NCBI GenBank assembly: GCA_036351795.1
Contig: JAZBPW010000020.1
Location: forward strand, 1,418-65,417
DNA from: Candidatus Zhuqueibacterota bacterium
GTDB taxonomy: Bacteria; Zhuqueibacterota; Zhuqueibacteria; Thermofontimicrobiales; Thiofontviventaceae
Direction of reading: 5' to 3'
Length of the DNA stretch: 64,000 nucleotides
Positions 14,171 through 40,800 of the stretch are shown here, piece after piece; the first letter of the stretch is position 1; each line of letters begins with the position of its first letter. The position numbers and the translations under genes were made by a program. The notes below the pieces were generated by a model. The model searched no databases and was not told the DNA's origin. It saw only the letters and a list, made by a program, of their open reading frames with translations.

Positions 14171-14683
14171 CTATTCCTCTGACGCTGGAGGAGTGAAACT
14201 GCGCTGAGCCAGCTCTCTGTCGATCATGAGGATGCCATGACCCTTCTCACCAACCATTCGAATCTTCTTGAGGATGGCTAGCATACCTGCCTCCTCTTCA
14301 ACCTGTTCATCGATGTACCAGTGGAGAAAACTCTGTGTGGCGTAGTCATTCTCTTCCTTCGCCAAAGCCATCAGATCATTGATGAGCTTGGTAACTTTCT
14401 GCTCGTGTTTCCAGGCATCATCAAAGACCTCCTCGAGTGACTTGTAGTCGATCTTCGGCTGATCGAGTCCATAAATTTTCACATCATGATTCTGCTCGAC
14501 CAAATAATGATAGAATTTCATCGCATGAAATCTTTCCTCTTGTTCCTGAATGACAAAAAAGTTCGCCATTCCGTCCATGTCGACCGATGAACAATACGCT
14601 GCCATTGCCAGGTACAGATGTCCTGAATACAACTCATTTTTAATTTGCTCGTTAATCATAGCTGCCATTTTGTCAGATATCAT
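14171..14683 (-). CDS. ftn: Ferritin (non-haem, bacterial Ftn).
   Basis: 'INEQIKNELYSGHLYLAMAAYC...EQEERFHAMKFYHY' (ferroxidase centre). Confidence 0.85.
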   Translation of the reverse strand: MISDKMAAMINEQIKNELYSGHLYLAMAAYCSSVDMDGMANFFVIQEQEERFHAMKFYHYLVEQNHDVKIYGLDQPKIDYKSLEEVFDDAWKHEQKVTKLINDLMALAKEENDYATQSFLHWYIDEQVEEEAGMLAILKKIRMVGEKGHGILMIDRELAQRSFTPPASEE

Positions 14684-15237: not shown

Positions 15238-16350
15238 TTAGCCGAACGGATCATAAAAAATCTGATCCATTTTCATTTGATATTTCTTCATGACATTGAT
15301 ACTCGCGTTGATCATCCCCGGGCTACCGCATAAATACCCCTGGCATTTGATCGCATCAATTTTCTGCAGGTACTCTTCCAATGGTTTTGTGATAAGCCCG
15401 GTCTCTCCGTCCCATTCATCTTCAGGTTCGGGTTCTGACAGCGCAGGAACAAAAGTAAAGCCCGGAATCTTCTTTTCGAATTCCGCCATTTCATCCAGGT
15501 AAAAAAGATCCTTTCTAGTCAACGCACCGAAAAAGTATGTGATCTTCCTGTCGATCTTCCGGTGTGCAATATCTTCCAGCAGCGAGACCATTGGCGCCAT
15601 TCCCGAACCACCTGCCACCAGAATCATTTCACTGTCAGATTCTCTGATATAGAAATCTCCCATGGGACCGATAATACGTACGTCATCCCCTTCCTGAAGA
15701 TACTCATGCACCCAGGTTGTGCAGATGCCATCCGGCACCAGACGGATCATCAGATCGACATGAGACTTTTCGAAATTCGGCGAGGACATGGAATACGCCC
15801 TGGAGACACTCTCCTTCACATCAGCGTATGGGTTTGTCTGCAGCTGCACGTATTGTCCTGCCTTGAAATTTATCTCATTCGGCTCGATCAGCGAAAATCG
15901 TACCAACTTAATATCATGCGTAAGATCCCGGATCATTGCCACATTCGTCCGGAACTCATTGATATTAAACAACTCTTCCGGTATTTCTATCTTGATATCC
16001 TGCTTGATTTTGATCTGACAGGATAACCGTATATTCTCCTTCATCTCCTCTGCGGTCAGCAGTGGTTCTTCGGTGGGCAGTATCGGCCCCACACCCTCCA
16101 GAACCTTGCACTTGCAATACCCGCAGGTCCCCCGTCCACCACAGGCCGAAGGAAGAAATATTTTTTGAGAATTGAGCGTCGACAACAAGGTTGCCCCCCC
16201 CTGTGTCCTGAACTCCTCATCATCGTTAATGGTGACATTGCACTCGCCATAGTTCGCGAGATATCTCTCGGCAATCACCAGCAGAATGCTGAGGATTGCA
16301 CTGATAGATGCCATGGAGACGGTCGCAATGATTATCTTATATAACATCAC
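15238..16350 (-). CDS. nqrF: Na+-translocating NADH:quinone oxidoreductase subunit F (TM anchor, 2Fe-2S ferredoxin, FAD and NADH domains).
   Basis: 'SACGGRGTCGYCKCKV' (2Fe-2S), 'RAYSMSS' (FAD), 'GGSGMAPM' (NAD). Full-length alignment to Vibrio NqrF. Confidence 0.9.
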   Translation of the reverse strand: MMLYKIIIATVSMASISAILSILLVIAERYLANYGECNVTINDDEEFRTQGGATLLSTLNSQKIFLPSACGGRGTCGYCKCKVLEGVGPILPTEEPLLTAEEMKENIRLSCQIKIKQDIKIEIPEELFNINEFRTNVAMIRDLTHDIKLVRFSLIEPNEINFKAGQYVQLQTNPYADVKESVSRAYSMSSPNFEKSHVDLMIRLVPDGICTTWVHEYLQEGDDVRIIGPMGDFYIRESDSEMILVAGGSGMAPMVSLLEDIAHRKIDRKITYFFGALTRKDLFYLDEMAEFEKKIPGFTFVPALSEPEPEDEWDGETGLITKPLEEYLQKIDAIKCQGYLCGSPGMINASINVMKKYQMKMDQIFYDPFG

Positions 16351-16358
16351 CCCTCGAA

Positions 16359-16949
16359 TTATTGAATTTGTACAATTCCTGAAAAACCGATGAACGCCAT
16401 CGCCATGATGCCAGTAATAATGAGAACAATGCCGGGTCCTCTCAGGGCCGGCGGAATTTTCTTCTCATTCATGCGCTGGCGGATACCTGCCATCGCCAGG
16501 ATGGCCAACAGCCACCCCAGTCCGCTCCCGGCTCCGAACATGACACTTTGAATGAAATTATACTGCCTGATCACCATGAACAACGACACGCCCAGTATCG
16601 CACAATTGACAGTGATCAAAGGAAGAAAAATGCCCAGATTGATGTACAATACCTCTGAAAATCGTTCGATGACCATCTCCAACAGCTGAACCGCGGAGGC
16701 AATAATAATAATGAATGCAATGAAACGCAAGTACTCCAATCCCAACGGTTCCAGCACATAGAAGAAGACGATGTAGTTCAGCGCCGATGTAACCGTCAAT
16801 ACAAATGTGACTGCCAGCCCCAGACCGAGCGATGTCTTCACCTGTTTGGAAACGGACAGGAATGAACACATCCCCAGAAAATAGACAAGCAGAATATTGC
16901 CTGTGAAGATTGACGCAAAAAATATGACCCAGGGGGAAAGATTTTCCAT
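16359..16949 (-). CDS. nqrE: Na+-NQR subunit E.
   Basis: 196-aa, 6TM NqrE/RnfA-family protein, 'FLGMCSFLSVSK'. Confidence 0.9.
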   Translation of the reverse strand: MENLSPWVIFFASIFTGNILLVYFLGMCSFLSVSKQVKTSLGLGLAVTFVLTVTSALNYIVFFYVLEPLGLEYLRFIAFIIIIASAVQLLEMVIERFSEVLYINLGIFLPLITVNCAILGVSLFMVIRQYNFIQSVMFGAGSGLGWLLAILAMAGIRQRMNEKKIPPALRGPGIVLIITGIMAMAFIGFSGIVQIQ

Positions 16950-16964
16950 CCTGTAAATCTCCTT

Positions 16965-17606
16965 CTATTCAGAATGCGATACTTTCATGGCCGACAGATT
17001 ATTCGCGACCCAGATGAATATCGCCAACATAAAAAAGCCGCCGGGTGCCATGATCATCAATGCCCATTGCACCCATCCCTCTGAGGATCCCATTGCCCGG
17101 AGCAATGGATCCATCACCTGATAGCCGACGATCGTTCCGAATCCCAGCAATTCGCGAAAAAAAGCGATCACCAGAATGACGTACATATACCCGACTCCGG
17201 ACATCACCCCATCCAGAAAAGCCAGCCCCGGCTTGTTCGATGAGGCAAATGCCTCCAGCCGACCCATGATGATGCAGTTGGTGATGATCAGTCCGACGTA
17301 CGGTCCGAGCGCCTTGCTGATATCAGGGACATACGCCTTCAGGACGACATCCACGATCACCACAAAACTCGCAATCACCAGTGTCTGAACCATCATGCGC
17401 ACACGCTGGGGAATGATATCCCTGATGAGCGATATCGTCAGGGAGGAAAAGGCAGTGACAAACGTCAGCCCCAGACCCAGGAATAGCGTATTCATGAATA
17501 TGTTCGTCACTGCGAGTGTCGAACATATTCCGAGAATCTGTACCGTCACAGGATTATTCTTCCACAGATCGTCTTTGATGAGTTCAATTGTTTTGTTATT
17601 CGCCAT
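16965..17606 (-). CDS. nqrD: Na+-NQR subunit D.
   Basis: 213-aa NqrD/RnfE-family protein, 'NPVTVQILGICSTLAVT'. Confidence 0.9.
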   Translation of the reverse strand: MANNKTIELIKDDLWKNNPVTVQILGICSTLAVTNIFMNTLFLGLGLTFVTAFSSLTISLIRDIIPQRVRMMVQTLVIASFVVIVDVVLKAYVPDISKALGPYVGLIITNCIIMGRLEAFASSNKPGLAFLDGVMSGVGYMYVILVIAFFRELLGFGTIVGYQVMDPLLRAMGSSEGWVQWALMIMAPGGFFMLAIFIWVANNLSAMKVSHSE

Positions 17607-17608
17607 AT

Positions 17609-18361
17609 TTATGATTTCACTTTATTGATTGCATTTTCATTCGACTGTATCAGTGCAATATAAAAACGAAGGTCGGTATTCACCATTTTCAGAACGCCAT
17701 CCACTGTTTGCGTCGCTCCCGTGATCGCCTGAAGCTCATTCGTAGACTCTTCCACGTTGCTGCGATTTTTCTGTTTGATCATGATCACCGGTGCCAGCTC
17801 TCTTCCGGATTTAAAAAATCCACTCAGATCGAGATTCCTGAAGAAATATTTGAACTCGGATTCCGTGATCCGGGCTCCCAGTCCGGGTGTCTCCACCTGT
17901 TCCGTGAAATCGATGCCGATCATCCGCTGCAGGTCGGCCGAAATGACACCAAATGCACTGATCGTACCCCACAGTCCTTTTCCACGCATCGGGAAACCGT
18001 ATGATACGATTCCTCCGGTCGAATCTGTTCGCGTGTAAATCGTGATGGAATCACTGACAGACAGAAAACTGCCGGAAAGCAGATCTTTCTGCGCAGCCGT
18101 GACAGGCAAGCGCAGCTCTCTGATTTCAGATTCGATCCGATCGGTAATGAATGATTCAGCATAAGGGATGTTTTCGGTAGTGCTGGCCGGTCCGAGATCG
18201 TGTTCTTCGATATTTGCCGGTAGTATATCAAAGGCATAGAGAATGGATTTGTAGTTGTTCAGCTTCAGGTTTTCGGCGATACGCTCTCTCGACACTTCAT
18301 TGACTGTTGCCAGTGTCGAAATGAACAGGACCGTGACTATCACCATGAATAGGATTGTCAT
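17609..18361 (-). CDS. nqrC: Na+-NQR subunit C (FMN-binding). I moved the start to the internal Met (MTILFMV...), because the 135-codon upstream extension in the ORF track would overlap nqrB.
   Basis: N-terminal TM helix, then an FMN-binding domain with 'ITGATQT' (covalent FMN Thr). The ORF track's extension reads as low-complexity Arg-rich junk. Confidence 0.8.
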   Translation of the reverse strand: MTILFMVIVTVLFISTLATVNEVSRERIAENLKLNNYKSILYAFDILPANIEEHDLGPASTTENIPYAESFITDRIESEIRELRLPVTAAQKDLLSGSFLSVSDSITIYTRTDSTGGIVSYGFPMRGKGLWGTISAFGVISADLQRMIGIDFTEQVETPGLGARITESEFKYFFRNLDLSGFFKSGRELAPVIMIKQKNRSNVEESTNELQAITGATQTVDGVLKMVNTDLRFYIALIQSNENAINKVKS

Positions 18362-18372
18362 CAGACTTTTTT

Positions 18373-19383
18373 TCAAGAGGGCGCCCTCCCTGTCTTGTAT
18401 GCCTTGACAGCGTAGTCGATGATCGGTCCGAACATATTGCCCAGAAGCACGGCAAACGTCAATCCGCCCGAAAAGAGTGCGAAGGATTTGATAATGATCG
18501 TCAATACGGCGATCAATCCGCCGTAAATGTAGCGCGTCAGATCCATCTTTGGTGCGGATACCGGATCGGTGATGATGTAGAAACCACCGTATATCGTCGA
18601 TCCCATCAGCACACCGTAAAATGGATTGGGGACCTTTGCCGGTATGATGAGATGCAGAATGCCGTCGAAAATAAAGTAGGCGACAAAAAAGCTGACGACG
18701 ATCTTCCAGTTGGCCGCTTTCTTGTAGACCAGATAGAGTCCCCCGATCACCAGCAAGAGCGCGCATATCTCTCCCTGAGATCCGGCCCCGATCAAGGTCA
18801 ATTCACCCAGTCTTTCGAACTGCCCGTTGATATTGCCAAGTATCAACTGCAGATAATCCGGCAAGGTGGATGCACCTTCTTTATAAGCGATCTGGGGTGT
18901 GGCCTCGGTAATGGCAGAGAGATAGTCGCTGGTGGAATAAAACTGCCATCTGGCGAATCCAGCCGGGAAATCACTGAAGTTTGCCGCCGGGATCCAGCTG
19001 TTGGTCATGTGGATCGGAAAGGTTATATAGACGAATGCCCTGCCGGTCATCGCCGGATTGAACACATTGAATCCGAATCCACCGAATGCCATCTTGCCGA
19101 ACACAATCCCGAACACGGCACCGATAACGACCATGTACATCGGTAATGTCGGTGGAAGTGAAAGACCGTATAAAAACGCTGTCACCAGGACCGCCTCGGA
19201 AACTTTGCCATTCTGTTTACGCACAAACATCCACTCGGCAATGACGCAACTGACGACAGAGAGCGCCAGCATGGCAAAGCTTCGCCAGCCGAAGAAAAAG
19301 ACTGCCGCAAACACGACCGGAATCAGCGTGTATACGACGGTTCGCATGACTTTCTGTTTTTGAAATTGGATTTTCATCATCAT
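18373..19383 (-). CDS. nqrB: Na+-NQR subunit B (NqrB/RnfD family).
   Basis: 'GGFGFNVFNPAMTGRAF', 'IITDPVSAP'. 336-aa polytopic membrane protein. Confidence 0.85.
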   Translation of the reverse strand: MMMKIQFQKQKVMRTVVYTLIPVVFAAVFFFGWRSFAMLALSVVSCVIAEWMFVRKQNGKVSEAVLVTAFLYGLSLPPTLPMYMVVIGAVFGIVFGKMAFGGFGFNVFNPAMTGRAFVYITFPIHMTNSWIPAANFSDFPAGFARWQFYSTSDYLSAITEATPQIAYKEGASTLPDYLQLILGNINGQFERLGELTLIGAGSQGEICALLLVIGGLYLVYKKAANWKIVVSFFVAYFIFDGILHLIIPAKVPNPFYGVLMGSTIYGGFYIITDPVSAPKMDLTRYIYGGLIAVLTIIIKSFALFSGGLTFAVLLGNMFGPIIDYAVKAYKTGRAPS

Positions 19384-19386
19384 TAT

Positions 19387-19746
19387 CTAGAAAGTTAAGA
19401 TTTCATACCCCTGTTCAATATATCTTCTCGTACTGGGATGGCCGGACATATCATCGCATATCTTCAATCCCTGCTCTTGCGCCGCGGAAAGGGATCCCAT
19501 CTTGGACGCGCATGCCTTGCATACGCAATCGAAAAGCCCGAGATCCTTTACTTTGTGATAGAGATTTGAAAACGGCTTGCTGGTATCCTTCAATTCCGCG
19601 ATCTGTTTGGTCGCAGACCCTTCCATGATGACTTTAACGTCATATCCGTTTTCGTGCAGATCGATGGCATTCAACAGGACATGCACGAAACACATAACTT
19701 CACCATTAAACGCGAATAAAGCGATCTTTTTCGTTTTGTAATCCAC
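19387..19746 (-). CDS. Small DsrE/DsrF-like (sulfur-relay fold) protein, immediately upstream of nqrB with a 3-nt gap.
   Basis: 'KIALFAFNGE...HVLLNAIDL...YDVKVIMEGSA' resembles the DsrE/DsrF family. Conserved Cys pair 'CVCKAC'. Confidence 0.55.
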   Translation of the reverse strand: MDYKTKKIALFAFNGEVMCFVHVLLNAIDLHENGYDVKVIMEGSATKQIAELKDTSKPFSNLYHKVKDLGLFDCVCKACASKMGSLSAAQEQGLKICDDMSGHPSTRRYIEQGYEILTF

Positions 19747-19749
19747 AGA

Positions 19750-21834
19750 TTAATATGTCTCCTTATTGGTAAATTGCAATGTATGATAGAAATGATCAAA
19801 CTCTTCGACAGAGGTGAAGGGCGCTTTACAACTGAAATTTTCACAGACAAACACTTTGACGTCGCCACCCGGCAAAACCTTGCCGTTCACCAGTGGAAAG
19901 AGAATATGTTCTTTCTCGCGAATGCTTCCATCCGCGTACGCCAAAACTTTATTGGGCAGATATTTGATCTGAATGGCTGATTTAAATTCTGTGAATGTCG
20001 CAGCGTCCCGTGGACCACTGAGAACAATCTCTTTTGCGGAATGAGTCAGGAAGTCTAGCGCGCAGAGCAGATGCGAAAATCCGAACGGGTAATTCTCGAT
20101 CTTGCCGGCATACATTCGGAAGGCTTCCGACGCTTTTTCCATTAGAATGTGATCACCCGTAAACCGGCCCAATCGTACCAGGCTGTGCACTGCGGCAGAA
20201 TTCCCGGATGGCACCGGATTGTCATATGGATTTCTTGTGCGCAACAGGATATCTGATTGTTCCATTTCCGTGAAGTAAAAACCTCCTTCTTCCTCATCCC
20301 AAAATTTGGCCAGCATACTGTCATTCAACTCGACAGCTGTGCTGAGATGGCTGAGTTCGAAAGATGTCTCATAAAGATCGAGCAGTGCTTCGATCAATAA
20401 TGCGTAATCCGATAGATAGCCATTAATTTGCGCCCTTCCAGCGCGCCATGTTCTCTTCAGTGATTTATCAATATATAGATTTTGCAATAAAAAATCAACC
20501 GCTTTTTGAGCCGCTTCAAGGTACATTTGCTCACCAAGCACCTGATGCGCCTTGCACAAAGCGGATATCATCATCGCGTTCCATGATGTGAGTATCTTAT
20601 CGTCCGTCCCCGGAGGCACTCGCTGAGATCGCCGGGACAATAGTACCGCTCTCGCATCGGCCATGCGCTGCGACAGATCACTTTCATCGATCGCATACTC
20701 TTTGGCGACAGGCGCATTGGACCTTCTCTGATGCAAAATGTTGACGCCTTCCCAATTACCTCCTCTTGAGACTCCGTAGAAATCCATGAAGAGTTTCGCA
20801 GGCTCTTCTCCCAGAAGGTCCACCACTTCGCTTGCATCCCACACGTAATATTTCCCTTCCTCTCCCTCACTGTCCGCATCCTGGGAAGAATAGAAACCGC
20901 CCTTCGGAGATGTCATCTCATCCAGGACGTATTTCAGTGTCGATCTCGCGATTTCCGTGTAAATTGTCTTTTTTGTGAGTTGAAAAGCCTCAAGATAGGT
21001 GCTGGTCAACAGAGCATTGTCATACAGCATTTTTTCGAAGTGTGGCACCAGCCAGCGCTCGTCAGTAGAGTAGCGATGAAATCCACCACCGAGATGATCG
21101 TATATGCCACCGCGCGCCATTTCGTCAAGTGTTTTTTCTACCATACTCAGCGCGCTACGCTCACCTGTATGAAAATAGTAGCGAAGCAGGAATGCCAATT
21201 CCATCGGCTGGGGAAATTTGGGCGCCTTTCCAAAACCACCATTTCGTTCATCGAATTGACGAACGGCGGTGTCAAAGGCCGGCTTCCATAAATGCATGCC
21301 GATCTCGCCGGCACCTGTACCCGGACTCTCCAGCTGCATCAACTGTTCAGTCAGTTCATCCGCGCTCTTCATCAGTTCGTCATTCCTATCCTTCCAGACA
21401 TCGACAATTTGAAGTAGCATATTTTTAAATCCAGGCCGCCCCCAGCGATCGTCAGGCGGAAAATATGTACCCCCGAAAAAGGGTTTGCGCAGAGGCGTCA
21501 GCCATATGGACAGAGGCCAGCCGCCGCTGCCGGTCATCATCTGTACGGCATTCATATAGATATTGTCGATATCGGGCCGCTCTTCGCGATCCACTTTAAT
21601 GGAGACGAAATGTTCATTGAGAATAGACGCAATCTCTTCGTTTTGGAAGGATTCATGCTCCATCACATGGCACCAATGACAGGCGGAATAGCCGATTGAG
21701 AGGAAGATGGGCTTGTTCAATTCGCGAGCCAGCCTCAATGCGTCATCTCCCCACGGATACCAGTTCACTGGATTGTGGGCGTGTTGCAACAGGTACGGAC
21801 TCGTTTCATTGATCAAATGATTGGTGTATTTCAA
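19750..21834 (-). CDS. yyaL: Thioredoxin-domain protein of the YyaL/DUF255 family (N-terminal thioredoxin fold plus an alpha/alpha-toroid domain).
   Basis: '[51 protein letters not shown]' (the signature CHWCH). Confidence 0.85.
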
Positions 21835-21935
21835 TTTTGTTTGCGACTCCTCACAATCGATTCAGGTATATGCGAAAGTTAATATAGCGATCAGGACAAT
21901 ATAGCCTGATGATTTCATCAATTTACAGGCTGTGA

Positions 21936-22166
21936 TCAGAGCTTTTTTCTGACATATGCCCTGTATTCATCCTTGCTGGTTTCAATTCCCAGAAATTCAT
22001 GTCCTGTCATTTTGCACCAGTTGGGCATATCCTCAACGATCCCCTCGTCATCTGATACCACTTCAAGCGTTTCTCCGACAGCCAGCTCTTTGATCTTTTC
22101 AGCCGTTTTGATAATCGGCATGGGACAATAAAGTCCAAGGCAATCTATTGTCATATCGGTTTTCAT
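21936..22166 (-). CDS. tusA: TusA-like sulfur-carrier protein.
   Basis: 76 aa with 'CLGLYCPMP' (the CPxP motif). Confidence 0.8.
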   Translation of the reverse strand: MKTDMTIDCLGLYCPMPIIKTAEKIKELAVGETLEVVSDDEGIVEDMPNWCKMTGHEFLGIETSKDEYRAYVRKKL

Positions 22167-22188
22167 GAAAAAGTGATCACTCCCTGTC

Positions 22189-22680
22189 CTAGATAAATAG
22201 TGTGGTACTGCTTTCCTGCGAGATTGCTAAAAACGACGCCACTCCGGCGACATTGTCCACTTCCGGGATCAGCGACTCTTTCGGGATCCCCATCACATTC
22301 ATGCTCGTGCTGCAGGCGGTGAAATTTACACCCAGTGATTTGGCTGTCGTCAGCATTTCGGACAAAGACGGCAACTTTGATTTCTTCATGATCTTTTTCA
22401 TCATTGCCGCGCCGGCGCCAGCCATGTTCATCCTGGAAATTGGTCTCTTATCCGGACCGGGTTTCACCATGACATTGAAAAGCCTTCTCAGGAGGTCGTT
22501 CTTCCCGCGCTTCGAGCCCTTTTCCTGCAATAGTTTCAACCCCCAGAACGTAAAAAACATATTCACCCTCATTCCAGAAGCGGCTGCTCCGGTAGCGATG
22601 GTCAGTGCCGCGAAGATCTTGTCCAGATCGCCGCTGAACACGATCAGAGCGATGGAATTCTTGTCGCCGTTATCATTCAT
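22189..22680 (-). CDS. DsrE/DsrF-like family protein.
   Basis: 'SIALIVFSGDLDK...FFTFWGLKLL...FTACSTSMNVMGI'. 163 aa. Overlaps the iscU stop by 8 nt. Confidence 0.6.
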   Translation of the reverse strand: MNDNGDKNSIALIVFSGDLDKIFAALTIATGAAASGMRVNMFFTFWGLKLLQEKGSKRGKNDLLRRLFNVMVKPGPDKRPISRMNMAGAGAAMMKKIMKKSKLPSLSEMLTTAKSLGVNFTACSTSMNVMGIPKESLIPEVDNVAGVASFLAISQESSTTLFI

Positions 22681-23113
22681 CGTGAGCTTCGTCGTGTTCC
22701 ATCTCTTCTTCAGATTTCAGCTTGATGGGCGAAGGGACACCCTTCTTCTTGTAATAGTCATCCAGAGCGCTCTGTAGCGCCTGCTCCGCCAGCACCGAAC
22801 AGTGCCGCTTCACCTTTGGTAGACCACCGAGCTCCTGAGTGACCTGTTCATTGGTGATCTCCAGGGCTTCATCTATTTTCTTTCCCTTGATCAGCTCGGT
22901 TGCCATACTGCTGGTGGCAATTGCCGCACCGCAGCCGAATGTCTTGAATTTGGCGTCGACAATCACATCATCCTTCACCTTGATATACATCTGCATGATA
23001 TCGCCGCACGACGGATTGCCAACCGTACCGATGCCATCGGGATCTTCAATTTCACCGACGTTACGCGGATTCATGAAATGATCCATCACTTTTTCACTGT
23101 ATGGTGTATTCAT
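22673..23113 (-). CDS. iscU: Fe-S cluster scaffold NifU/IscU.
   Basis: 'GNPSCGDIMQMYIKV', 'FKTFGCGAAIATSS', 'KRHCSVLAEQAL' (three conserved Cys). Confidence 0.9.
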   Translation of the reverse strand: MNTPYSEKVMDHFMNPRNVGEIEDPDGIGTVGNPSCGDIMQMYIKVKDDVIVDAKFKTFGCGAAIATSSMATELIKGKKIDEALEITNEQVTQELGGLPKVKRHCSVLAEQALQSALDDYYKKKGVPSPIKLKSEEEMEHDEAHDE

Positions 23114-23133
23114 ATTCGATCCTTTTCTTGATT

Positions 23134-24297
23134 CTATTTTTTATATAATGGAGACATCATCCGCAATCGTTCAACGATCGGCGGCAGTTTCTCTACGAGC
23201 AAATCGATCTCGTTTTTCGTATTGTCAATACCAAGCGTAAACAATATTGTTCCATTGGCAATGGCGTGAGAAACGCCGATCGCAAGAAGAACATGCGACG
23301 CTTTCAAGGCCCGCGATGTACACGCGGAACCACTCGACGCCAGAATATTGAAAGTGCCCAACATCAGGAGAATCGACTCACCCTCGATGTATTCAAATCC
23401 AAAATTGACATTGTTCGGCAGCCGCAACGTGCGGTGGCCATGCAGACTCACATGTTCGATTTTGCTCTCCAGAGACTCGATGAGATGGTCTCGAAGAGAT
23501 GTGACAAAATCGACGCGCATGGTCATATCCCGCGCCGCGATTTCAGCCGCTGTACCCATACCCACGATTCCCGGCACATTCTCCGTCCCGGCGCGACGTC
23601 CGTTTTCCTGCGTTCCTCCATCTATCAATGGATTGATGCGCGACCCTTTCCTGATGTATAGCGCGGCAGACCCTTTGGGTCCATAAAAAGTAGTTCCCGC
23701 AAGACTCATGAAATCCAGATTCATATCCTTTACATCGACAGGAACGCTGCCAACAGTCTGCACGCCATCCGAATGAAAGAGGATATCCCGCGCCTTCACA
23801 ATCCCGGCGATCTCCCGTATGGGTTCAATCGTGCCGATCTCGTGATTCGCATGCATAATGGACACGAGAATCGTGTCATCCCTGAGCGCCTTCTTCACAT
23901 CATCCGGGTCTAACAGGCCATTTGAATCGACCGGGACTTTTGTGATTTCGAATCCCAGTTTTTCGAGCGATCTGGCAGCCTGTAATACTGAAAAATGCTC
24001 GATTTCCGAGACGACGATATGTCTGCCTTTCTTGCCCAGTGCGAAGGCGACGCCCTTCAATGCAAAGTTATTCGATTCACTTCCGCTCGACGTGAAGATA
24101 ATCTCCTCTGGCGAGGCATTGATCAGGGCTGCGACCTGCGCTCTGGCTTTGTCTATCGCATCTTTGATCTTCTGTCCCTCAAGATGCAGACTCGAAGGAT
24201 TTCCGTACAGGTCCCTGATGTAAGGCTGCATGCTCTTCGCGACTTCGTCCAGAGGCCGAGTTGCAGAGGCATGGTCAAAATTTATTATTTCACTCAT
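23134..24297 (-). CDS. NifS/IscS-family cysteine desulfurase homologue with the PLP Schiff-base Lys replaced. 'SGHK(I/L)YGPKG' has become 'AGTTFYGPKG'. The catalytic Cys loop (SSGSACTS) is intact.
   Basis: Full-length alignment to IscS. TSSGSESNN, the His and the Asp are all retained. I read the H-K to T-T change directly from the DNA: the reverse complement of 23677-23706 reads 'agtcttgcgggaactactttttatggaccc'. Confidence 0.85.
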   Translation of the reverse strand: MSEIINFDHASATRPLDEVAKSMQPYIRDLYGNPSSLHLEGQKIKDAIDKARAQVAALINASPEEIIFTSSGSESNNFALKGVAFALGKKGRHIVVSEIEHFSVLQAARSLEKLGFEITKVPVDSNGLLDPDDVKKALRDDTILVSIMHANHEIGTIEPIREIAGIVKARDILFHSDGVQTVGSVPVDVKDMNLDFMSLAGTTFYGPKGSAALYIRKGSRINPLIDGGTQENGRRAGTENVPGIVGMGTAAEIAARDMTMRVDFVTSLRDHLIESLESKIEHVSLHGHRTLRLPNNVNFGFEYIEGESILLMLGTFNILASSGSACTSRALKASHVLLAIGVSHAIANGTILFTLGIDNTKNEIDLLVEKLPPIVERLRMMSPLYKK

Positions 24298-24306
24298 ATA
24301 TTTATC

Positions 24307-25017
24307 TCACTGATTGACTTTATTTTGAATAAAGGTGATGGCCCTCAGGGGACGGCAGTCCTTCGGACATACCTTCACGCAGTTCGCATGCTTATCACAG
24401 TCGAACACACCATTCTCACGGCTGCTCATCTCCTTCCGCGATGCCAGCTCCGCATCCCTCGGGTCAAACACCTGCTTATAGATTTGAATAGAGACTGCCG
24501 GACCTATGAACTCCGGCGAATCATCTACCTTCGGACAATCCGCATAACAGCATCCGCATTTAATGCAATCGGCAGAACGATTCAATTGGTCGAGGTGTAT
24601 TTTATCCAGATGCGCTTCATATGTCAAGCGTTCGTCCGCCAGATCTTTTTCCCGGACAAGCCAGGGCATGGTTTTTTCTATCTCCTGCCACATCGTTCTC
24701 TGATCCACCACCAGATCTTTGATCACATCAAAATGCGTAAGGGGCTCCAGTGTGACGACGTCATTCTCTTTCAGCATATCATTCACCTGGGTCTTGCACG
24801 CCAATCGTGCCTGTCCGTTGATCTTGATCGCACATGTACCGCATATTGCGCCACGGCACGAATAACGGTAAGCCAATGTCGCATCCTGCTCATCATGGAT
24901 CTGATGCAGCAGGTCGAGAACCGACATTCCCGGTTTGAATTGAGCCGTATATTCCACCTGCGCGCCTGTTTTCTCTTTTTCCGGATTGTATCTGTAGATC
25001 TTGACTTTAAATTCCAT
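24307..25017 (-). CDS. sdhB: Succinate dehydrogenase / fumarate reductase iron-sulfur subunit.
   Basis: 2Fe-2S 'CRGAICGTCAIKING', 4Fe-4S 'CIKCGCCYADCP', 3Fe-4S 'CVKVCPKDCRP'. Confidence 0.9.
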   Translation of the reverse strand: MEFKVKIYRYNPEKEKTGAQVEYTAQFKPGMSVLDLLHQIHDEQDATLAYRYSCRGAICGTCAIKINGQARLACKTQVNDMLKENDVVTLEPLTHFDVIKDLVVDQRTMWQEIEKTMPWLVREKDLADERLTYEAHLDKIHLDQLNRSADCIKCGCCYADCPKVDDSPEFIGPAVSIQIYKQVFDPRDAELASRKEMSSRENGVFDCDKHANCVKVCPKDCRPLRAITFIQNKVNQ

Positions 25018-25080
25018 CCTGAAAATCCCTTGTTGTTATTTCACTAAAAGGAAAAAATCAATAATAAATTTTGATTGAAA

Positions 25081-26778
25081 TCAGTACTTGATCTCTTTCA
25101 AAGGTTCGATATTCTCTATCACGACATCCTTGTAGCTGAGCACGGGTTTGCCGTTTTCACCCCGTCTGACAACTGTATGCTTCAGGAATTCCGCGTTATT
25201 CATCTCAGGATAGTCATCGCGATGATGCGCGCCACGACTCTCTCTTCTCGCGATAGCGCCCTGGGCACAGATGTGCGCCAGCTCCAGCATATTGCCCAGC
25301 TCGAGCACGCGGATCAGATCGAGATTGTACACCCTGCCCTTGTCTCCGACGACCACTGACTGATATCGCTTCTTCAATTCTTCGATGCTATCCAGCCCCT
25401 CTTTCATCAGCTTCTCATTGCGAAAAATACCAAAACATTTGATCATCGCTTTTTCCATATCATCACGGATGTGAGCGGCATTTTCACCCTTGCTGCGACC
25501 CATCAATTCCGCCAGTCGCTGCTCCTCCTGCTTCAGCGACGATTCGCTGTAATTCAGGACACTGTTATTTCTCGCGAATTTCAAAGCCTGTACACCGGCA
25601 TGAAAGCCGAAAACAACCGTCTCGAGCAGAGAATTCCCGCCCAGCCGATTCGCGCCATGCACACTGACGCATGCCGCTTCGCCTGCGGCATAGACGCCCG
25701 GTACGTCGCTCTCTGTCCGCACGTTCACATCAATGCCACCCATGGTGTAATGCACAGTCGGCCGGATCGGTATGGGTTCATGCACCGGATCGACACCTGC
25801 GAAATGGATCGCGATCTCGCGGATCTGCGGCAGGCGCGTCTTGATCTTCTCCTCGCCGAGATGACGGAGGTCGAGATGCACATATTCATCGTTCACACCA
25901 CGACCATTCTGTATTTCCAGATGAATGGAACGTGCAACAAAATCGCGGGGTGCGAGCTCCATGAATTTCGGCGCATAATTTTTCATAAAGCGCTCGCCCT
26001 TGTTGTTGATCAAATAGCCACCCTCTCCCCTCGCGCCCTCGGTGATCAAAATCCCGTTGAGCAGGCCGGTGGGATGGATCTGAAAAAATTCAAAATCTTC
26101 GATTGGAAGCCCGGCATTGTACGCAAGCGCCACGCCATCTCCGGTATTGATCAGTGCATTGGAGCTCTGACCGTACACGCGCCCGGCGCCTCCGGTTGCA
26201 ATGACAAGCGCCTTGCTGCGGATGAAATTGAACTCGCCGGTCAGTATGTCGAATGCCGTCAGACCTCTGTATGCACCATCCTCGATGACAAGTGATGTGA
26301 CAAACCACTCCCAATAGATGGTGATCTTGTGCCTCATCGCCTGTTCGTACAGCGTGTGAAGCAGATTATGCCCTGTCTTGTCTGCGACGAAACATGTCCG
26401 GTGGCGACTCTGGCCACCGAAAGCCCGCTGCGCGACAGTGCCATCTTCATTCCGTGTGAACAACGCCCCATATCGATCGAGCCGGGAGATGGCATCCTTG
26501 GCTTCGCTGCATAATACACGCGCGGCATCCTGATCCGCAAGAAACCATGCGCCCTTCACGGTGTCGTACATGTGGCCCTGCCAACTATCATCGAAACGAA
26601 GCGCTGCGTTAATGCCTCCCTGGGCAGCGCCGGAATGAGACCGGACGGGATGCACTTTGGTCACAATCGCAACATCCGCATTCGCATCCTCCTCTTTCGC
26701 CTGTATCGCTGCGCTGAGACCGGCCAATCCGGCTCCCATGATGATAATATCGTGCGTTTTATGCGCTGTCATCTGCAT
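25081..26778 (-). CDS. sdhA: Succinate dehydrogenase / fumarate reductase flavoprotein subunit.
   Basis: 'IIIMGAGLAGLSAA', 'RSHSGAAQGGINAA' (FAD His), and a conserved C-terminal domain. Confidence 0.9.
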   Translation of the reverse strand: MQMTAHKTHDIIIMGAGLAGLSAAIQAKEEDANADVAIVTKVHPVRSHSGAAQGGINAALRFDDSWQGHMYDTVKGAWFLADQDAARVLCSEAKDAISRLDRYGALFTRNEDGTVAQRAFGGQSRHRTCFVADKTGHNLLHTLYEQAMRHKITIYWEWFVTSLVIEDGAYRGLTAFDILTGEFNFIRSKALVIATGGAGRVYGQSSNALINTGDGVALAYNAGLPIEDFEFFQIHPTGLLNGILITEGARGEGGYLINNKGERFMKNYAPKFMELAPRDFVARSIHLEIQNGRGVNDEYVHLDLRHLGEEKIKTRLPQIREIAIHFAGVDPVHEPIPIRPTVHYTMGGIDVNVRTESDVPGVYAAGEAACVSVHGANRLGGNSLLETVVFGFHAGVQALKFARNNSVLNYSESSLKQEEQRLAELMGRSKGENAAHIRDDMEKAMIKCFGIFRNEKLMKEGLDSIEELKKRYQSVVVGDKGRVYNLDLIRVLELGNMLELAHICAQGAIARRESRGAHHRDDYPEMNNAEFLKHTVVRRGENGKPVLSYKDVVIENIEPLKEIKY

Positions 26779-26825
26779 TCAACAATCCCTTTCTTGCAAT
26801 TTGTACTTATTTTCTGTTTGTAATC

Positions 26826-26854
26826 AATATAAATTAAAAACATACCAAAATCAA
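26826..26854 (-). promoter_or_regulatory. Candidate sigma70-type promoter for the sdhA-led minus-strand chain.
   Basis: On the minus strand: TTGATT, 17 nt, TATATT, about 40 nt upstream of the sdhA ATG. An AAGGGA SD lies nearby. Confidence 0.3.
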
Positions 26855-27039
26855 GTGTTTTCCGTAGCCATTCGCGCAATTTTTATATTGCGTATCATCA
26901 GAATCGCTATCGCAATATCAGTGTAAATATTAAGTTAATAAAATTCCGCTCAAAATGCAATTCTTTTATTTAATTCAACGGACACATGATGATTTTCCGC
27001 TTTCACAACGCCATGAGCGACCATGTAAAATGGTGTGCA

Positions 27040-27082
27040 ATGAGAAGGTAAAAATGAAGGTGCATAAATGAATATGCACCGC
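27040..27082 (-). terminator. Intrinsic terminator of the PDZ-protein gene.
   Basis: An 8-bp stem (GGTGCATA / TATGCACC) with a 6-nt loop, followed on the minus strand by 'TTCATTTTTACC'. Confidence 0.45.
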
Positions 27083-27129
27083 CCTAAAACAATGACGGTG
27101 CATATTCACGGAGTTATCTCATGAAACGA

Positions 27130-28059
27130 TCATATGGTACCGCCAGTCCCTCTTCGCTTTTTGATGATCCTGATTTCTTTTTCTTGCATGTCTTCTTCAA
27201 GTTTTTCGATATCTTCATGGATATCGTCATCTATCTCTATCTCGATCTCCTCCATGTCCGGTATCACCATCTTTTTGATGAAGGAATCGTGCCCCAGATA
27301 TGTCCCCTTGTCGAGAACCACATCGATGCTCTTCTTTGATTGCTTGCGCATCACTTCGACAGAGACCTGCTCGCCTTCATCATACTCGGAGAGGATCTCT
27401 CTGATCTCTTTGGATGTCGACACCACCTCATCGTTCAATTTCATGATCACATCGCCGGCTTTGATTCCAGCCTTTTCAGCAGCGCTCTCCTCAAATACCT
27501 CAAGGACGAGCACGCCTTCATCTTTCTTGACGCTGAAATAGTCAGCGAGGTCATCATTGAAATCCATTATTTTCACACCCATCTGCGAACGGGGATGGAT
27601 CATGTAGAAGTCCTTCATCATATCGCCATGCTTGTGATGAGAAACATATTCCTTTTCCCCCAACTCAATTTTCATCGATTTCTTACTCCCGTTCCGGTAA
27701 AGTGTTACATTCACCTTGTCTCCGGGTGCATTCTTTCCTATCAACCTGGACAACGTCGCCGGCTTTCTGACTGCTGTGCCATTGACTTCGGTGATGATAT
27801 CATCTTCCATTATTCCCGCTTTTTCAGCAGGACTGTCATCGCTGACCTCTTTCACAACGACGCCGTATTCCAATTTCAACTGCGTCTTCAGCGTCGATGA
27901 TATGTCGCCGATAACCACCCCCAGATAGCCTTTCCCCTTCTCCCCTGCCAGAGCGCCATGGTTGATCAATCCAGAGACACCCAGTATAAGGACAAGCGTT
28001 AATGCGATCAAACCTGTTTTACACTTCATTGCAAACCTCCCATCATTGTTAATATACAT
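27130..28059 (-). CDS. Secreted tandem-PDZ-domain protein with an acidic C-terminal tail.
   Basis: Signal peptide 'MKCKTGLIALTLVLILGVSG'. Two PDZ cores ('GVVVKEVSDDSPAEKAGIMEDDII', 'GVLVLEVFEESAAEKAGIKAGDVI'). No protease domain. Confidence 0.8.
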   Translation of the reverse strand: MYINNDGRFAMKCKTGLIALTLVLILGVSGLINHGALAGEKGKGYLGVVIGDISSTLKTQLKLEYGVVVKEVSDDSPAEKAGIMEDDIITEVNGTAVRKPATLSRLIGKNAPGDKVNVTLYRNGSKKSMKIELGEKEYVSHHKHGDMMKDFYMIHPRSQMGVKIMDFNDDLADYFSVKKDEGVLVLEVFEESAAEKAGIKAGDVIMKLNDEVVSTSKEIREILSEYDEGEQVSVEVMRKQSKKSIDVVLDKGTYLGHDSFIKKMVIPDMEEIEIEIDDDIHEDIEKLEEDMQEKEIRIIKKRRGTGGTI

Positions 28060-36289: not shown

Positions 36290-36812
36290 TCAGACCAGCG
36301 AAGTGGATCCGAAGCTGTCAGTTTCCGATACAATTATGGCAATGGATTTAGCAGTGATGGCATCCGTGAAATAGTACTTATCCCCGTCAGGCTCGATGCG
36401 GTCATTATTTCTGGTCAGCGTACGGGGAAAAAAATAATTAGCAGCCCCGGTGATGATACCGTAATAGTCATCAAAGCCCCGCTGCATCGGCCAGTTGTGC
36501 TTTGGTTCATCGATATGACGCGTCACATGCCATTTCCCCGACATATAGGCGGCGTACCCGCCGGTCTTCAATGCCTCCGCGATGGTGACGGTGTGCTGGT
36601 TCAAATCGCCAAGATAGCCGTCGATGCCGTCATCCCCCATCATGTGTCCGACATCCGCCTGGTGGGGATGGAGACCTGTGAGCAGAGATGCCCTCGAAGG
36701 CCAGCAGCGGGCTGTGGTGTATGGATTTCTCCGCCATAACAACCGAGATCAGAGTATCCCATGTCGTCATTGAGGATCAATATGATATTAAGTTGAGTCA
36801 TTTCAAGGCCTT
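36290..36812 (-). pseudogene. Sulfatase (arylsulfatase-family) remnant. The N-terminus '[27 protein letters not shown]' (ATG at 36812) is out of frame with the CxPxR-containing segment '[16 protein letters not shown]', and the protein is truncated after ~175 aa.
   Basis: Hand translation of the reverse complement of 36721-36812 gives the canonical sulfatase N-terminus in one frame. The ORF 36290-36742 continues the family sequence in another frame. About 300 C-terminal residues are absent. Confidence 0.7.
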
Positions 36813-37821: not shown

Positions 37822-40800
37822 ATGGGAAAACTATCCAAACGCGATGTACACTGGTTGCAGGAGAAATTTGGTGACCGGGTGACCTTCGACAAGACCGAGC
37901 GCGTGCTTTACGGGCATGATATTGCCGCCATGCCCAGGCTGTTCAAGCCGTTGATCGGCGACACCACCCCCGATGCCGTAGTGCAGCCTATGAACGAAAC
38001 CGAACTGGCCGAGATGGTGCACTGGGCTGCCGAAAAGAACATCCCGCTTACGCCCAGGGGCAAAGCCTCGTCAGGCTATGGCGGTGTGTTACCGACACGC
38101 AACGGGATCGTCGTCGATTTTTACAAGATGAAGGATGTCATCTCAATCGATGAAAAAAACATGACTGTCACCGTTCAGCCAGGAATCACATGGGAGCAGC
38201 TCGATAAAAAGATCGATACCAGCAATCTGGCGCTGCGTTTATACCCGTCCAGCTATCCATCATCTTCGGCAGGTGGCTGGCTGGCACAGGGCGGCGCCGG
38301 CTTCGGATCTTACGAATACGGCTGGTTTTCCGAAAATGTGGAATCCGCGAACATCGTTTTGCCCACCGGAGAGATCAAAAAAATCTCCGGCGATGAACTG
38401 GACATGGTAGCCGATGCCGAGGGAATCACCGGCATCATCAGCGAAGTGACGGTGAAGCTGCAGCCAAAGACTGATCTCGGGATCATCGCCATCGCCTTTC
38501 CGGATTCCGAAAAATTTACCCGTGCCATGAAGGACGTCGTCGACAGTGGCATGCCGGTATGGTCGATCATCTTCATCAATCCCAAGATGGCGGAGATGAA
38601 AAACCGCGCACCGCAGATGCTGCATCACGGTCATCCTGTCGGACACAAACCACTGCTGCCTGCCGCATACATTGCCACGATCGCGTTTCGTGAATCAGAC
38701 AGGTCAGCAGTGCTGGAAAAGCTTCCCGGCATCCTCGACAGCCACGAGGGTGAGATGCTGAGCCAGGAGATCGCGGATCACGAGTGGGAGGAGCGGTTCA
38801 AATTGATGGTCGTCAAGAGACTTGGACCGTCGCTGGTACCGGCGGAAGTGGTTGTGCCCCTGAAGAACTTCGACAAGGTGATGTCTGAAATTGAAAGAAA
38901 GGTAGATCAGCCCGTGGTCAAGGAGGGTGTGCTGATCAGGGATGGCGCTGATGGCGAACCGGAAGTCGTAATCCTGGGCTTCATCCCGAGCGACCAGAGG
39001 AAATTCGCATACAATCTGGTGTTCGGTCTCGTGCTCACCATTCTGAAGATCGCCGAGAAGCATGGCGGCAGGGCCTATTCAACCGGACTCTATTTTTCCA
39101 GCAGGGCAAAAGATATCCTCGGCGCCGAACGCCACGACAGGTTGAAAGCGTACAAGAAACAGGCCGATCCGAAAGGGCTGCTCAATCCGGACAAGGTGAT
39201 CGGCAAGAAGCTCATCGGACGCATACTGGGCATGGCCAATCTGCTGGAGCCGCTCGCCCGGCCGTTCGGAAATCTGTTCATACAGAAAGTGGGTGAACGT
39301 CCTGAAATGAAACAGGTGAGAGACATTCCGGGTGACGTTGCCTGGTACGCCTACGCCTGTTCGCAGTGCGGTTATTGCGTGGATGAATGCGATCAGTTTT
39401 ATGGACGCGGCTGGGAAAGCCAGTCGCCGCGTGGAAAATGGTACTGGTTACGTGAATATATGGAAGGGAAGGCCGACTGGGATCAGAAGATGGTGGATAC
39501 GATGCTCGTCTGCACAACCTGCGAGTTGTGCAATCTTCGCTGCTCCGCCTCGCTCCCCATCGAACAGTCATGGATGAAACTGCGCGGCAAGCTTGTCCAT
39601 GAAAATAAAGAGATGACATTCCCGCCCTTCGAAATGATGGGCGCCGCCCTGAATTCGGAAGGCAATATCTGGGCTGGTTACCGGAGCAACCGCACGGACT
39701 GGTTCCCCAAAGAACTTTGGGAAAAGCATGGACCGAAGCACAAGAGCAAGAACGTCTATTTCGCGGGTTGCACCGCATCCTATGTCGAACACGACATCGG
39801 CGCTGCTTCTGTGACCCTTCTGGATGCGGCTGGGGTCGATTTCACCTATCTCGGCAAGGCGGAGAACTGCTGCGCCACGCCCATGCTCGTTGCCGGTAAA
39901 TGGGATCTCTTCACCAAGGTGATGAAACAGAATATCGAAAACGTAAAGGCCGCCGGCGCGGATACAGTCATTTCATCCTGTCCCGCCTGCGACATGATGT
40001 GGCGACATACGTACAAAGAGTGGGCGGAGAAGCTCGGTATCGAGTACAATATCAAGGCGAAACACTACAGCGAGATCATTGCCGGGAAGATTGATTCCGG
40101 CGAGTTCAAGTACACCAAAGAGATCAAACAGCGCGTCACCTGGCACGATTCATGTCACATCGGCCGTGTCTCAGGTGTCTACGAAGAGCCACGCAAAATG
40201 ATCCAGGCCATTCCGGGCATCGACTTTGTTGAGATGCGGCACAATCGCGACGAAGGGCATTGCTGCGGCAGTGTGCTCACGTTGATCAAGGATCCGCTGG
40301 TCGCGCATGAAGTGGGTAAACACCGGCTCGACGATGCCATCGAGAATGAGTCTGAATCCGTACTCGCGCTCTGTCCCTGCTGTGAATTTCAGCTGCGCGT
40401 GAGTCAGCAGAAGAAAGATATTCCGCTGGAAATTCACGACCTCGCCGCATTCGCCTGCAAGGCGCTTGGAAAAGAGTTCAAAGACCCGAATCCCGAGGTG
40501 GCAAAACAGTGGGCCGTATTCGAGGGCATGATTGCGCTAATGACGCCGAAAGGTTTCGCGGAGCTGATGGACAGCATGTGGCCGGAATTGCTCAGGGCAA
40601 TGCCACTCGGCATGGGCGGTATGATGAAGGCCATCGGCAAGCTGGGCTTTGTCGGCGACGCCATGTTCGCCGCCATGAAGCCCATATTTCCTGTGCTTTT
40701 TCCAAAGCTGTTGCCGGGTATGATGCCGAAGGTGATGCCGACCATGCTGTCCCGCGTGGGCGACAGGATACCCATGCCGGATTACATGGCGGAACAGATG

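Follow-up and report, generated by a model that had tools for sequence, protein, structure and literature searches.

The 64,000-nucleotide stretch analyzed here (positions 1,418 to 65,417 of contig JAZBPW010000020.1, assembly GCA_036351795.1, from Candidatus Zhuqueibacterota; the whole stretch is referred to as the window) carries on its minus strand a gene for a NifS/IscS-type protein in which the lysine that binds pyridoxal 5′-phosphate (PLP) as a Schiff base is missing. The gene belongs to a tight cluster of same-strand genes (Table 1): sdhB is followed after 9 nt by the NifS-like gene, which is followed after 20 nt by the gene for an IscU-type scaffold, then, with an 8-nt overlap, by a DsrE-family gene and, after a 22-nt gap, by a TusA gene. 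This is the neighborhood and the tight spacing that a first-pass annotation of the DNA had described. The reading frame is unbroken over 387 amino acids, and residues 5-367 match PF00266 (Aminotran_5) at 1.1e-73, indicating a full-length class-V aminotransferase fold; the score against the NifS equivalog TIGR03402 is 501.4 bits, slightly below the cutoff of 530.75. The analyses below place the protein in a large clade of homologues that share its losses, and the protein itself probably serves as a non-catalytic partner of IscU in the assembly of iron-sulfur (Fe-S) clusters.

The loss of the catalytic dipeptide can be read directly from the DNA. The plus strand at 23689-23694 is AGTAGT, hence ACT ACT in the coding orientation, and encodes Thr202-Thr203 in the context DFMSLAG-TT-FYGPKG. 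When the protein is aligned with E. coli IscS (reference sequence from NC_000913, 42% identity; residue numbers marked Ec are those of E. coli IscS), no gap occurs over Ec 145-215, and the two threonines land on H205 and K206. The intact frame and the replacement of His-Lys (HK) by Thr-Thr, both reported by the first-pass annotation, are thus borne out. The shift of another lysine into the site by an indel is ruled out by the ungapped alignment, the lysine of the GPKG motif being present in canonical enzymes as well. Retained are the TSSGSESNN loop, His101 (Ec H104), Asp177 (Ec D180) and Cys326 of the SSGSACTS loop (Ec C328). The earlier statement that every other conserved element is kept is correct for these, but not for three further positions, as Arg354 has become Leu352, Asn155 has become His152 and Ser203 has become Ala200. 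With Arg354, His205, Asn155 and Ser203 all changed in addition to the lysine, the loss at the active site is larger than had been assumed.

The same losses extend to the relatives of the protein. Among the 120 best database homologues (96-59% identity, many of them labelled candidate division KSB1), none has a lysine at the site; with the window protein included, it is absent from 121 of 121 sequences, all of which have Leu or Met at the Arg354 position and retain the loop cysteine (Ec Cys328). The former HK dipeptide varies freely (NQ 24, NT 20, QT 17, PT 14, QN 11, and others) next to a conserved FYGPKG. A scan of loci restricted to one genome per species yielded 80 loci (designated by L-numbers below), of which 77 are Lys-less, with Leu or Val at the Arg354 position in 77 of 77. 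The remaining three comprise two HK loci that retain the arginine and one, L080, with Tyr-Lys and Gln at the Arg354 position. In a more distant sample, made up of the 150 best-matching cluster representatives at 50% identity, both Lys and Arg are present in 127, while about 23 lack the lysine and nearly all of these lack the arginine too; the K206 and R354 states co-vary among the cluster representatives and the loci alike. The premise of the first-pass annotation that all class-V desulfurases carry the lysine is mistaken, since IscS2 of Archaeoglobus fulgidus (PDB 4EB5) reads SS-ND-IYGPKG.

The NifS-like gene is under purifying selection. Relative to a 96%-identical orthologue (L094), it shows 87.5 synonymous and 17.5 non-synonymous differences, corresponding to a ratio of non-synonymous to synonymous substitution rates (dN/dS) of 0.048, like that of the adjoining sdhA (0.045) and sdhB (0.042). 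Residue 202, Thr in the window and Pro in L094, where the dipeptide is Pro-Thr, is one of just 16 amino-acid differences between the two proteins. The low dN/dS together with the varying dipeptide indicates strong purifying selection on a gene whose former catalytic dipeptide drifts. Nothing beyond the unusual residues themselves would speak for an error in sequencing or assembly, or for a decaying gene inactivated by mutation in this one strain; this reading is rejected here as having practically no chance of being right, because the lysine is missing from the 120 nearest homologues and from 77 of 80 loci of independent assemblies, the frame is intact and dN/dS is low. The first-pass annotation had likewise regarded a sequencing error as unlikely and the gene as a maintained, non-catalytic NifS rather than a decaying one. 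Close relatives with HK, which would have spoken for an isolated mutation, were not found among the 120 homologues.

When 112 proteins of the Lys-less clade described below were compared column by column with 111 canonical relatives, just eight columns proved conserved in the canonical set (threshold at least 90%) and relaxed in the Lys-less one: T12, N155, Q183, H205, K206, G214, N290 and R354. We take these to include contacts to the cofactor O3′, to the phosphate, to the Schiff base and to the substrate, as established for IscS. H104, D180, T243, G325, A327 and C328 are invariant in both sets; the first three presumably stack on the cofactor ring, contact the pyridine nitrogen and bind the phosphate, respectively. 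Conservation of the IscU-docking helix (Ec 309-316), of the C-terminal helix (Ec 376-389) and of the Cys loop is higher within the Lys-less clade than in canonical relatives. The Cys loop of the clade has also gained basic residues, with Arg or Lys at Ec 331 in 95% and Lys at Ec 334 in 99% of the members, where canonical proteins have Gly and Glu. Their counterparts in the window protein are Arg329 and Lys332 (Cys loop, 23320-23340, minus strand), which could handle an anion or a persulfide, or contribute to the docking of a partner.

The structure prediction suggested by the first-pass annotation gave an IscS/NFS1 fold. The AlphaFold2 model has a predicted local distance difference test (pLDDT) score of 88 and a predicted template modeling (TM) score of 0.88, and confidence is low only in the mobile Cys loop, where this is expected, and in the 225-237 loop. 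Foldseek places the model at TM 0.92-0.96 to human NFS1, A. fulgidus IscS and E. coli IscS, and superposition on A. fulgidus IscS 4HVK gives a root-mean-square deviation of 1.6 Å and TM 0.96 at 45-47% identity.

The retained cofactor pocket raises the possibility that the protein is still an enzyme, which would hold a pyridoxal cofactor non-covalently or through another lysine, for example Lys332, and carry out a different reaction or a slow desulfuration. In this case, the invariance of His104, Asp180 and Thr243 across the clade would mean that a cofactor is still bound and used, and the near-invariant basic residues at Ec 334 and Ec 331 would find a role. A review (PMC8918507) describes A. 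fulgidus IscS as holding pyridoxamine 5′-phosphate (PMP) or PLP non-covalently. However, the general-base lysine and the substrate-binding arginine are both missing, no indel is able to reposition a lysine, and the former HK positions vary freely between Pro, Thr, Asn, Gln, Ala and other residues, which argues against catalytic constraint there. Lys332, the sole newly invariant lysine, sits on the mobile loop (pLDDT below 50), and A. fulgidus IscS has Gln at Ec 334. According to reviews (PMC8918507, PMC7585200), wild-type A. fulgidus IscS has no desulfurase activity and binds PMP non-covalently; PMP, and not a PLP-Lys aldimine, is likewise found in the D199K variant (PMC8918507). Retained catalysis is therefore very unlikely, and the invariance of the three residues is consistent with a cofactor kept non-covalently, as in A. 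fulgidus IscS.

The extent of the Lys-less group was examined in a neighbor-joining tree computed with the diagnostic columns masked and with 60 bootstrap replicates. The window protein falls within a clade of 113 leaves, of which 112 are Lys-less, with labels that include KSB1, WOR-3, Nitrospirota, Chloroflexota, Aminicenantes, Deltaproteobacteria/Desulfomonile, Brocadia and Archaeoglobaceae. The bootstraps recover this large clade stably (median 118 leaves, at least 97% Lys-less). A. fulgidus IscS2 lies in a separate six-leaf Lys-less clade. Canonical leaves within the common ancestor of the window protein and A. fulgidus IscS2 number 82 in the median and range from 0 to 109 over the 60 replicates; the two Lys-less clades are thus usually, but not always, apart. 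Parsimony counts at least 10 changes overall. The one Lys-containing leaf of the large clade, P0122 (L083:491-1675), keeps His-Lys but has Leu at the Arg354 position and Ile at Thr243. L080 (344-1486), which encodes the Tyr-Lys protein with Gln for Arg354, is nested within the Lys-less clade and still has both IscU and TusA beside it; the two are possible intermediates or reversions. The closest solved structures (E about 1e-121) are PDB 9WEP and its variants 9WER, 9WEW, 9WF8, 9WFB, 9WFE and 9WFY, whose 406-aa chains named 'cysteine desulfurase' retain HK and Arg and adjoin the Lys-less clade in the tree; they would be the natural catalytic comparator. A. fulgidus IscS2 is the second-closest solved family (AF0564; PDB 4EB5, 4EB7 and 4HVK; D199K variant 4R5F).

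The gene context of the clade was counted in the 65 Lys-less loci whose downstream sequence extends over 1.5 kb or more. IscU lies immediately downstream of the Lys-less gene in 61 of them, and its cluster ligand residues Cys36, Asp38, Cys61, His104 and Cys105 are invariant in 81 orthologues. TusA is found within 3 kb in 55 loci, the CPxP motif being present in 58 of 62 linked TusA genes, and a DsrE-family gene with a single cysteine (Cys123, invariant in 13 orthologues) stands between IscU and TusA in 12. Among the Lys-containing controls, TusA occurs in one of six independent contexts, namely L080 (Fisher p = 0.001 against the 55 of 65, with a small control set and kinship ignored). In Archaeoglobaceae and in one A. 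fulgidus-type representative, TusA is instead located directly upstream of the Lys-less gene, and this adjacency in differing gene orders suggests a functional rather than an accidental linkage. The flanking same-strand open reading frames (ORFs; n = 124) are dominated by Rrf2/IscR-type (27), Nfu-type NifU domain (24), NadA (13) and FeS_assembly_P (11) genes, which identifies the surroundings as Fe-S biogenesis operons. In most loci, the Lys-less gene stands as the only NifS/IscS of an IscR-NifS-IscU-type operon.

This arrangement bears on whether the protein could be a regulatory or decoy paralogue, which would sequester IscU or TusA, or sense the sulfur or iron status, and thereby modulate a canonical desulfurase encoded elsewhere. 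IscU and TusA do compete for IscS in E. coli, and the co-existence of a Lys-less protein with a real enzyme does occur. At L093 (3897-6635), an A. fulgidus-type IscS without the lysine, in which Ser-Asp replaces HK and Gln replaces Arg354, is encoded together with a NifU_N protein, and the two are followed by an intact type-II SufS/CsdA-like desulfurase in which HK, Arg and Cys are all present, so that a pseudo-enzyme and scaffold pair travels with a sulfur-mobilizing enzyme. Yet in most loci the Lys-less gene has no other NifS/IscS beside it, the 64-kb window contains no canonical copy, nor any second desulfurase-type class-V aminotransferase, SufBC or rhodanese, and the conservation of the Cys loop and of the entire IscU surface fits a working partner better. 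The 'regulatory' role put forward by the first-pass annotation found no specific support, and we consider a decoy improbable.

It appears probable, from the residues kept and by analogy with the A. fulgidus protein, that the window gene encodes a non-catalytic NifS/IscS body that forms dimers and docks IscU, with Cys326 presented as a ligand of the cluster, as the final sulfur station or as both. The NifS-like protein would then be the obligate partner of the adjacent IscU in a minimal (MIS-type, two-gene) Fe-S assembly system, with Cys326 brought by the mobile loop to the IscU assembly site. Because the lysine that serves as Schiff base and general base and the carboxylate-binding arginine are both gone, a persulfide derived from cysteine would be impossible, and the sulfur would therefore have to come from outside. 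The source of this sulfur is the uncertain step. The candidates are free sulfide, and sulfane sulfur that would be passed from the DsrE-family carrier to TusA and from there to Cys326; the operon encodes both of these carriers. Since transfer from DsrE3-type proteins to TusA is one-way and IscS has a defined TusA site, the operon suggests a relay from DsrE to TusA, Cys326 and finally IscU, which is proposed tentatively and as somewhat doubtful.

The main alternative to this relay keeps the same non-catalytic scaffold partner but supplies it with free sulfide from an anoxic, sulfidic habitat, TusA and DsrE being devoted to tRNA 2-thiouridine, to the molybdenum cofactor or to sulfur detoxification. 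Sulfide is the source proposed for A. fulgidus IscS-IscU (PMC8918507), and both MIS (MisS-MisU) and SMS are described as able to use it. About 10 of the 65 Lys-less loci, most of them labelled Desulfomonile or Deltaproteobacteria, have no TusA in the vicinity, and a DsrE gene is missing from most loci, so that the relay cannot be universal. Moreover, the E. coli TusA footprint on IscS (W45, E49, D52, R55, R220 and R237) is poorly conserved in Lys-less and canonical proteins alike, which leaves TusA docking without support from the sequence. On the other hand, the linkage of TusA is strong and nearly absent in the few Lys-containing contexts sampled, TusA lies in operons otherwise made of IscR-type, Nfu-type and IscU genes, and it also adjoins the A. 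fulgidus-type and Archaeoglobaceae Lys-less genes in a different order. Free sulfide is considered a somewhat unlikely source. Newly conserved arginines at Ec 225 and Ec 239 were considered as a TusA docking site and dropped, as they belong to the CyaY/IscX/ThiI patch (Shi et al. 2010).

Besides the loci that lack TusA or DsrE and the missing footprint, three considerations weigh against a non-catalytic partner fed by TusA. In E. coli, sulfur is transferred from IscS to TusA, which is opposite to the direction proposed. The invariant cofactor contacts leave some room for catalysis, as discussed above. Finally, we infer inactivity from sequence and from a single archaeal homologue that usually falls outside the clade in neighbor-joining trees. 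For the formation of the complex, for Cys326 as a ligand and for the route of the sulfur, the argument is one of analogy with characterized systems. These points set against, it is conceivable, although speculative, that a housekeeping, IscR-controlled Fe-S assembly without PLP chemistry operates in many anaerobic phyla (KSB1, Nitrospirota, Aminicenantes, Chloroflexota, WOR-3, Brocadiales and others), in which a dead NifS/IscS adaptor would dock IscU while its loop cysteine would accept sulfane sulfur from TusA, alone or together with DsrE. If true, such PLP-free, TusA-fed assembly would reverse the textbook direction from IscS to TusA and answer how A. fulgidus IscS-type systems get their sulfur.

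More generally, the clade points to Fe-S cluster assembly with sulfur that is not taken from cysteine. Public records name the Lys-less homologues 'cysteine desulfurase', 'IscS subfamily cysteine desulfurase' or 'PLP-dependent enzyme', so that reconstructed metabolisms of KSB1, Nitrospirota, Aminicenantes and further uncultured anaerobes probably include a cysteine-dependent mobilization of sulfur, ascribed to these proteins, that the sequence cannot support. With respect to mechanism, TusA, the DsrE-family carrier in some lineages and the type-II desulfurase at one A. fulgidus-type locus provide concrete candidates for the sulfur donor. With respect to evolution, a large Lys-less clade that crosses phyla and is under strong selection indicates that the non-catalytic state is stable and widespread and not an archaeal curiosity; this is also relevant to the question of which source, cysteine or environmental sulfur, served the ancestral minimal (MIS) system.

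Table 1. Genes of the cluster around the Lys-less NifS/IscS-like protein, with the codons discussed in the text (window coordinates).
Feature	Coordinates	Strand	Basis
Lys-less, Arg-less type-I NifS/IscS (MisS-like) protein, 387 aa	23134..24297	-	ORF, PF00266, TIGR03402, AlphaFold2/Foldseek, dN/dS
Codons 202-203, ACT ACT: Thr-Thr for His205-Lys206 (PLP Schiff-base Lys)	23689..23694	-	DNA read; alignment to E. coli IscS
Codon 326, TGT: Cys, mobile-loop cysteine (Ec Cys328)	23320..23322	-	C in 121/121 homologues; SSGSAC conserved
Codon 352, TTG: Leu for substrate-binding Arg354	23242..23244	-	alignment to E. coli IscS
IscU/NifU-type scaffold (MisU-like)	22673..23113	-	PF01592 6e-51; TIGR03419 NifU_clost 206.6 bits, above the 187.9 cutoff
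DsrE-family sulfur carrier (DsrE3-like), lone conserved Cys123	22189..22680	-	PF13686 1e-45; under the DsrE2 equivalog cutoff
TusA sulfur carrier, CPMP cysteine motif	21936..22166	-	PF01206 9e-27
DUF255/YyaL-type thioredoxin-domain protein, CHWCH motif	19750..21834	-	PF03190 6e-79
Small DsrE-like protein, 119 aa	19387..19746	-	PF02635 8e-5
sdhB	24307..25017	-	TIGR00384 213 bits
sdhA	25081..26778	-	TIGR01812 750 bits

The genes on either side of the core cluster (Table 1) have a narrower distribution. The linkage to sdhAB is restricted to KSB1-type loci, where the order is repeated in L002, L004, L007 and L094; through this linkage, a three-cluster Fe-S client might be tied to the genes for its assembly. 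No membrane-anchor gene (sdhC/D or sdhE/F) is adjacent to sdhA and sdhB. The DUF255 gene and the small DsrE-like gene are likewise restricted to KSB1-type loci, in which they conservedly adjoin each other, the DUF255 gene occupying the same position in L003, L004, L005, L007 and L094. A scan of positions 19000-27400 for promoters and terminators returned counts that did not differ from those of shuffled sequences and says nothing on the limits of the operon. Starting 4 nt past the end of the small DsrE-like gene, an NQR/RNF-like operon (15238-19383, minus strand) encodes an RnfD/NqrB-like protein (18373-19383), an FMN_bind protein, two Rnf-Nqr membrane subunits and an NqrF-like Fer2-FAD-NAD protein (15238-16350). 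Its head carries no NqrA/RnfC-like gene; the DUF255 and small DsrE-like genes are found there, in an order identical in the 96% relative L094. A ferritin gene (14171-14683, minus strand) lies just downstream of this operon, in the same orientation as the Fe-S assembly genes. Elsewhere in the window, 37822-40923 (plus strand), preceded by a MarR regulator, encodes a 1033-aa fusion of FAD_binding_4, FAD-oxidase_C, 4Fe-4S dicluster and two CCG domains, a GlcD/GlcF- or HdrD-like oxidoreductase of the lactate/glycolate type. An 884-aa protein (5846-8500, minus strand) combines an N-terminal membrane region like cytochrome bd subunit I with multihaem c-type (c3, c7, MtrC-like) and cbb3-type cytochrome c domains, and a 150-aa ORF (36290-36742, minus strand), which matches only positions 43-158 of the 301 of a sulfatase profile, is possibly a gene remnant.

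The combination of genes described here can be compared with five known systems. In the MIS system, as in the window, a NifS-like gene is paired with a single-domain IscU-like gene (the TIGR03402/TIGR03419 pair of anaerobes) in an operon without HscAB, IscA or Fdx, and the annotated ORFs of the window include no HscA, HscB, IscA or Fdx. However, MisS is described as a cysteine desulfurase, whereas the window protein lacks the catalytic Lys and Arg and scores below the TIGR03402 cutoff. The E. coli IscS hub involves the same three families, IscS-like, IscU and TusA; the IscS-IscU and IscS-TusA complexes are known (PDB 3LVL and 3LVJ), with a structurally defined TusA site (Shi et al. 2010). Unlike the window protein, the IscS of this hub is catalytic and gives sulfur to TusA, so that the flow in the window would have to run backwards. 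In the DsrE3-TusA relay of sulfur oxidizers, which is associated with sHdr and rDsr, a single cysteine of DsrE3-type proteins takes up sulfane sulfur (from polysulfide, for instance), which is then donated one-way to TusA. The window shares with it a single-Cys DsrE-family protein encoded beside TusA; yet that relay feeds dissimilatory sulfur oxidation, whereas the window pair forms part of an operon for Fe-S biogenesis, and the annotated ORFs of the window include neither sHdr nor Dsr genes.

The closest parallel is A. fulgidus IscS2. Like the window protein, it has lost Lys206 (DMLTISS-ND-IYGPKG, with ND where the window has TT) and has Leu for Arg354 (GTLLLTLG, GTILFTLG in the window), it keeps the type-I fold, His104, Asp180 and the Cys loop, and it is encoded beside IscU. 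According to PMC8918507 and PMC7585200, the loop cysteine of IscS is the fourth ligand of the [2Fe-2S] cluster in the crystal structure of the A. fulgidus IscS-IscU(D35A) complex. The loss of Lys206, the Cys loop and the neighboring IscU that characterize the A. fulgidus IscS type are all found in the window gene, and its conserved IscU-docking positions suggest that a comparable (IscS-IscU)2 complex with a Cys ligand may form. The window protein differs in being bacterial, in the unconstrained replacements of HK rather than Asn-Asp, and in the additional basic residues of the Cys loop at Ec 331 and 334, the second of which is Gln in A. fulgidus IscS. The gene order differs as well, NifS-like, IscU, DsrE in some cases and TusA in the window clade, versus TusA, IscS and IscU in the A. 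fulgidus type. How [2Fe-2S] clusters are assembled on A. fulgidus IscS-IscU without desulfurase activity was considered an open question in a 2022 review (PMC8918507). IscS1 of Methanosarcina acetivorans, which also lacks the catalytic lysine, has been suggested to act like A. fulgidus IscS (PMC7585200); it too is archaeal, and is one of three IscSU copies, the others including active ones.

In the literature searched, no description of a bacterial Lys-less clade or of its linkage to TusA was found; Pagnier 2015, Yamanaka 2013, Marinoni 2012 and Garcia et al. 2022 lie outside that scope and may mention them. Altogether, an inactive cysteine desulfurase paralogue that partners IscU is a kind of protein already known, of which the window gene is another instance. 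What appears to be new is the size and the bacterial breadth of the clade that lacks both Lys and Arg, and its linkage to TusA, with or without DsrE, in IscR/Nfu-type operons.

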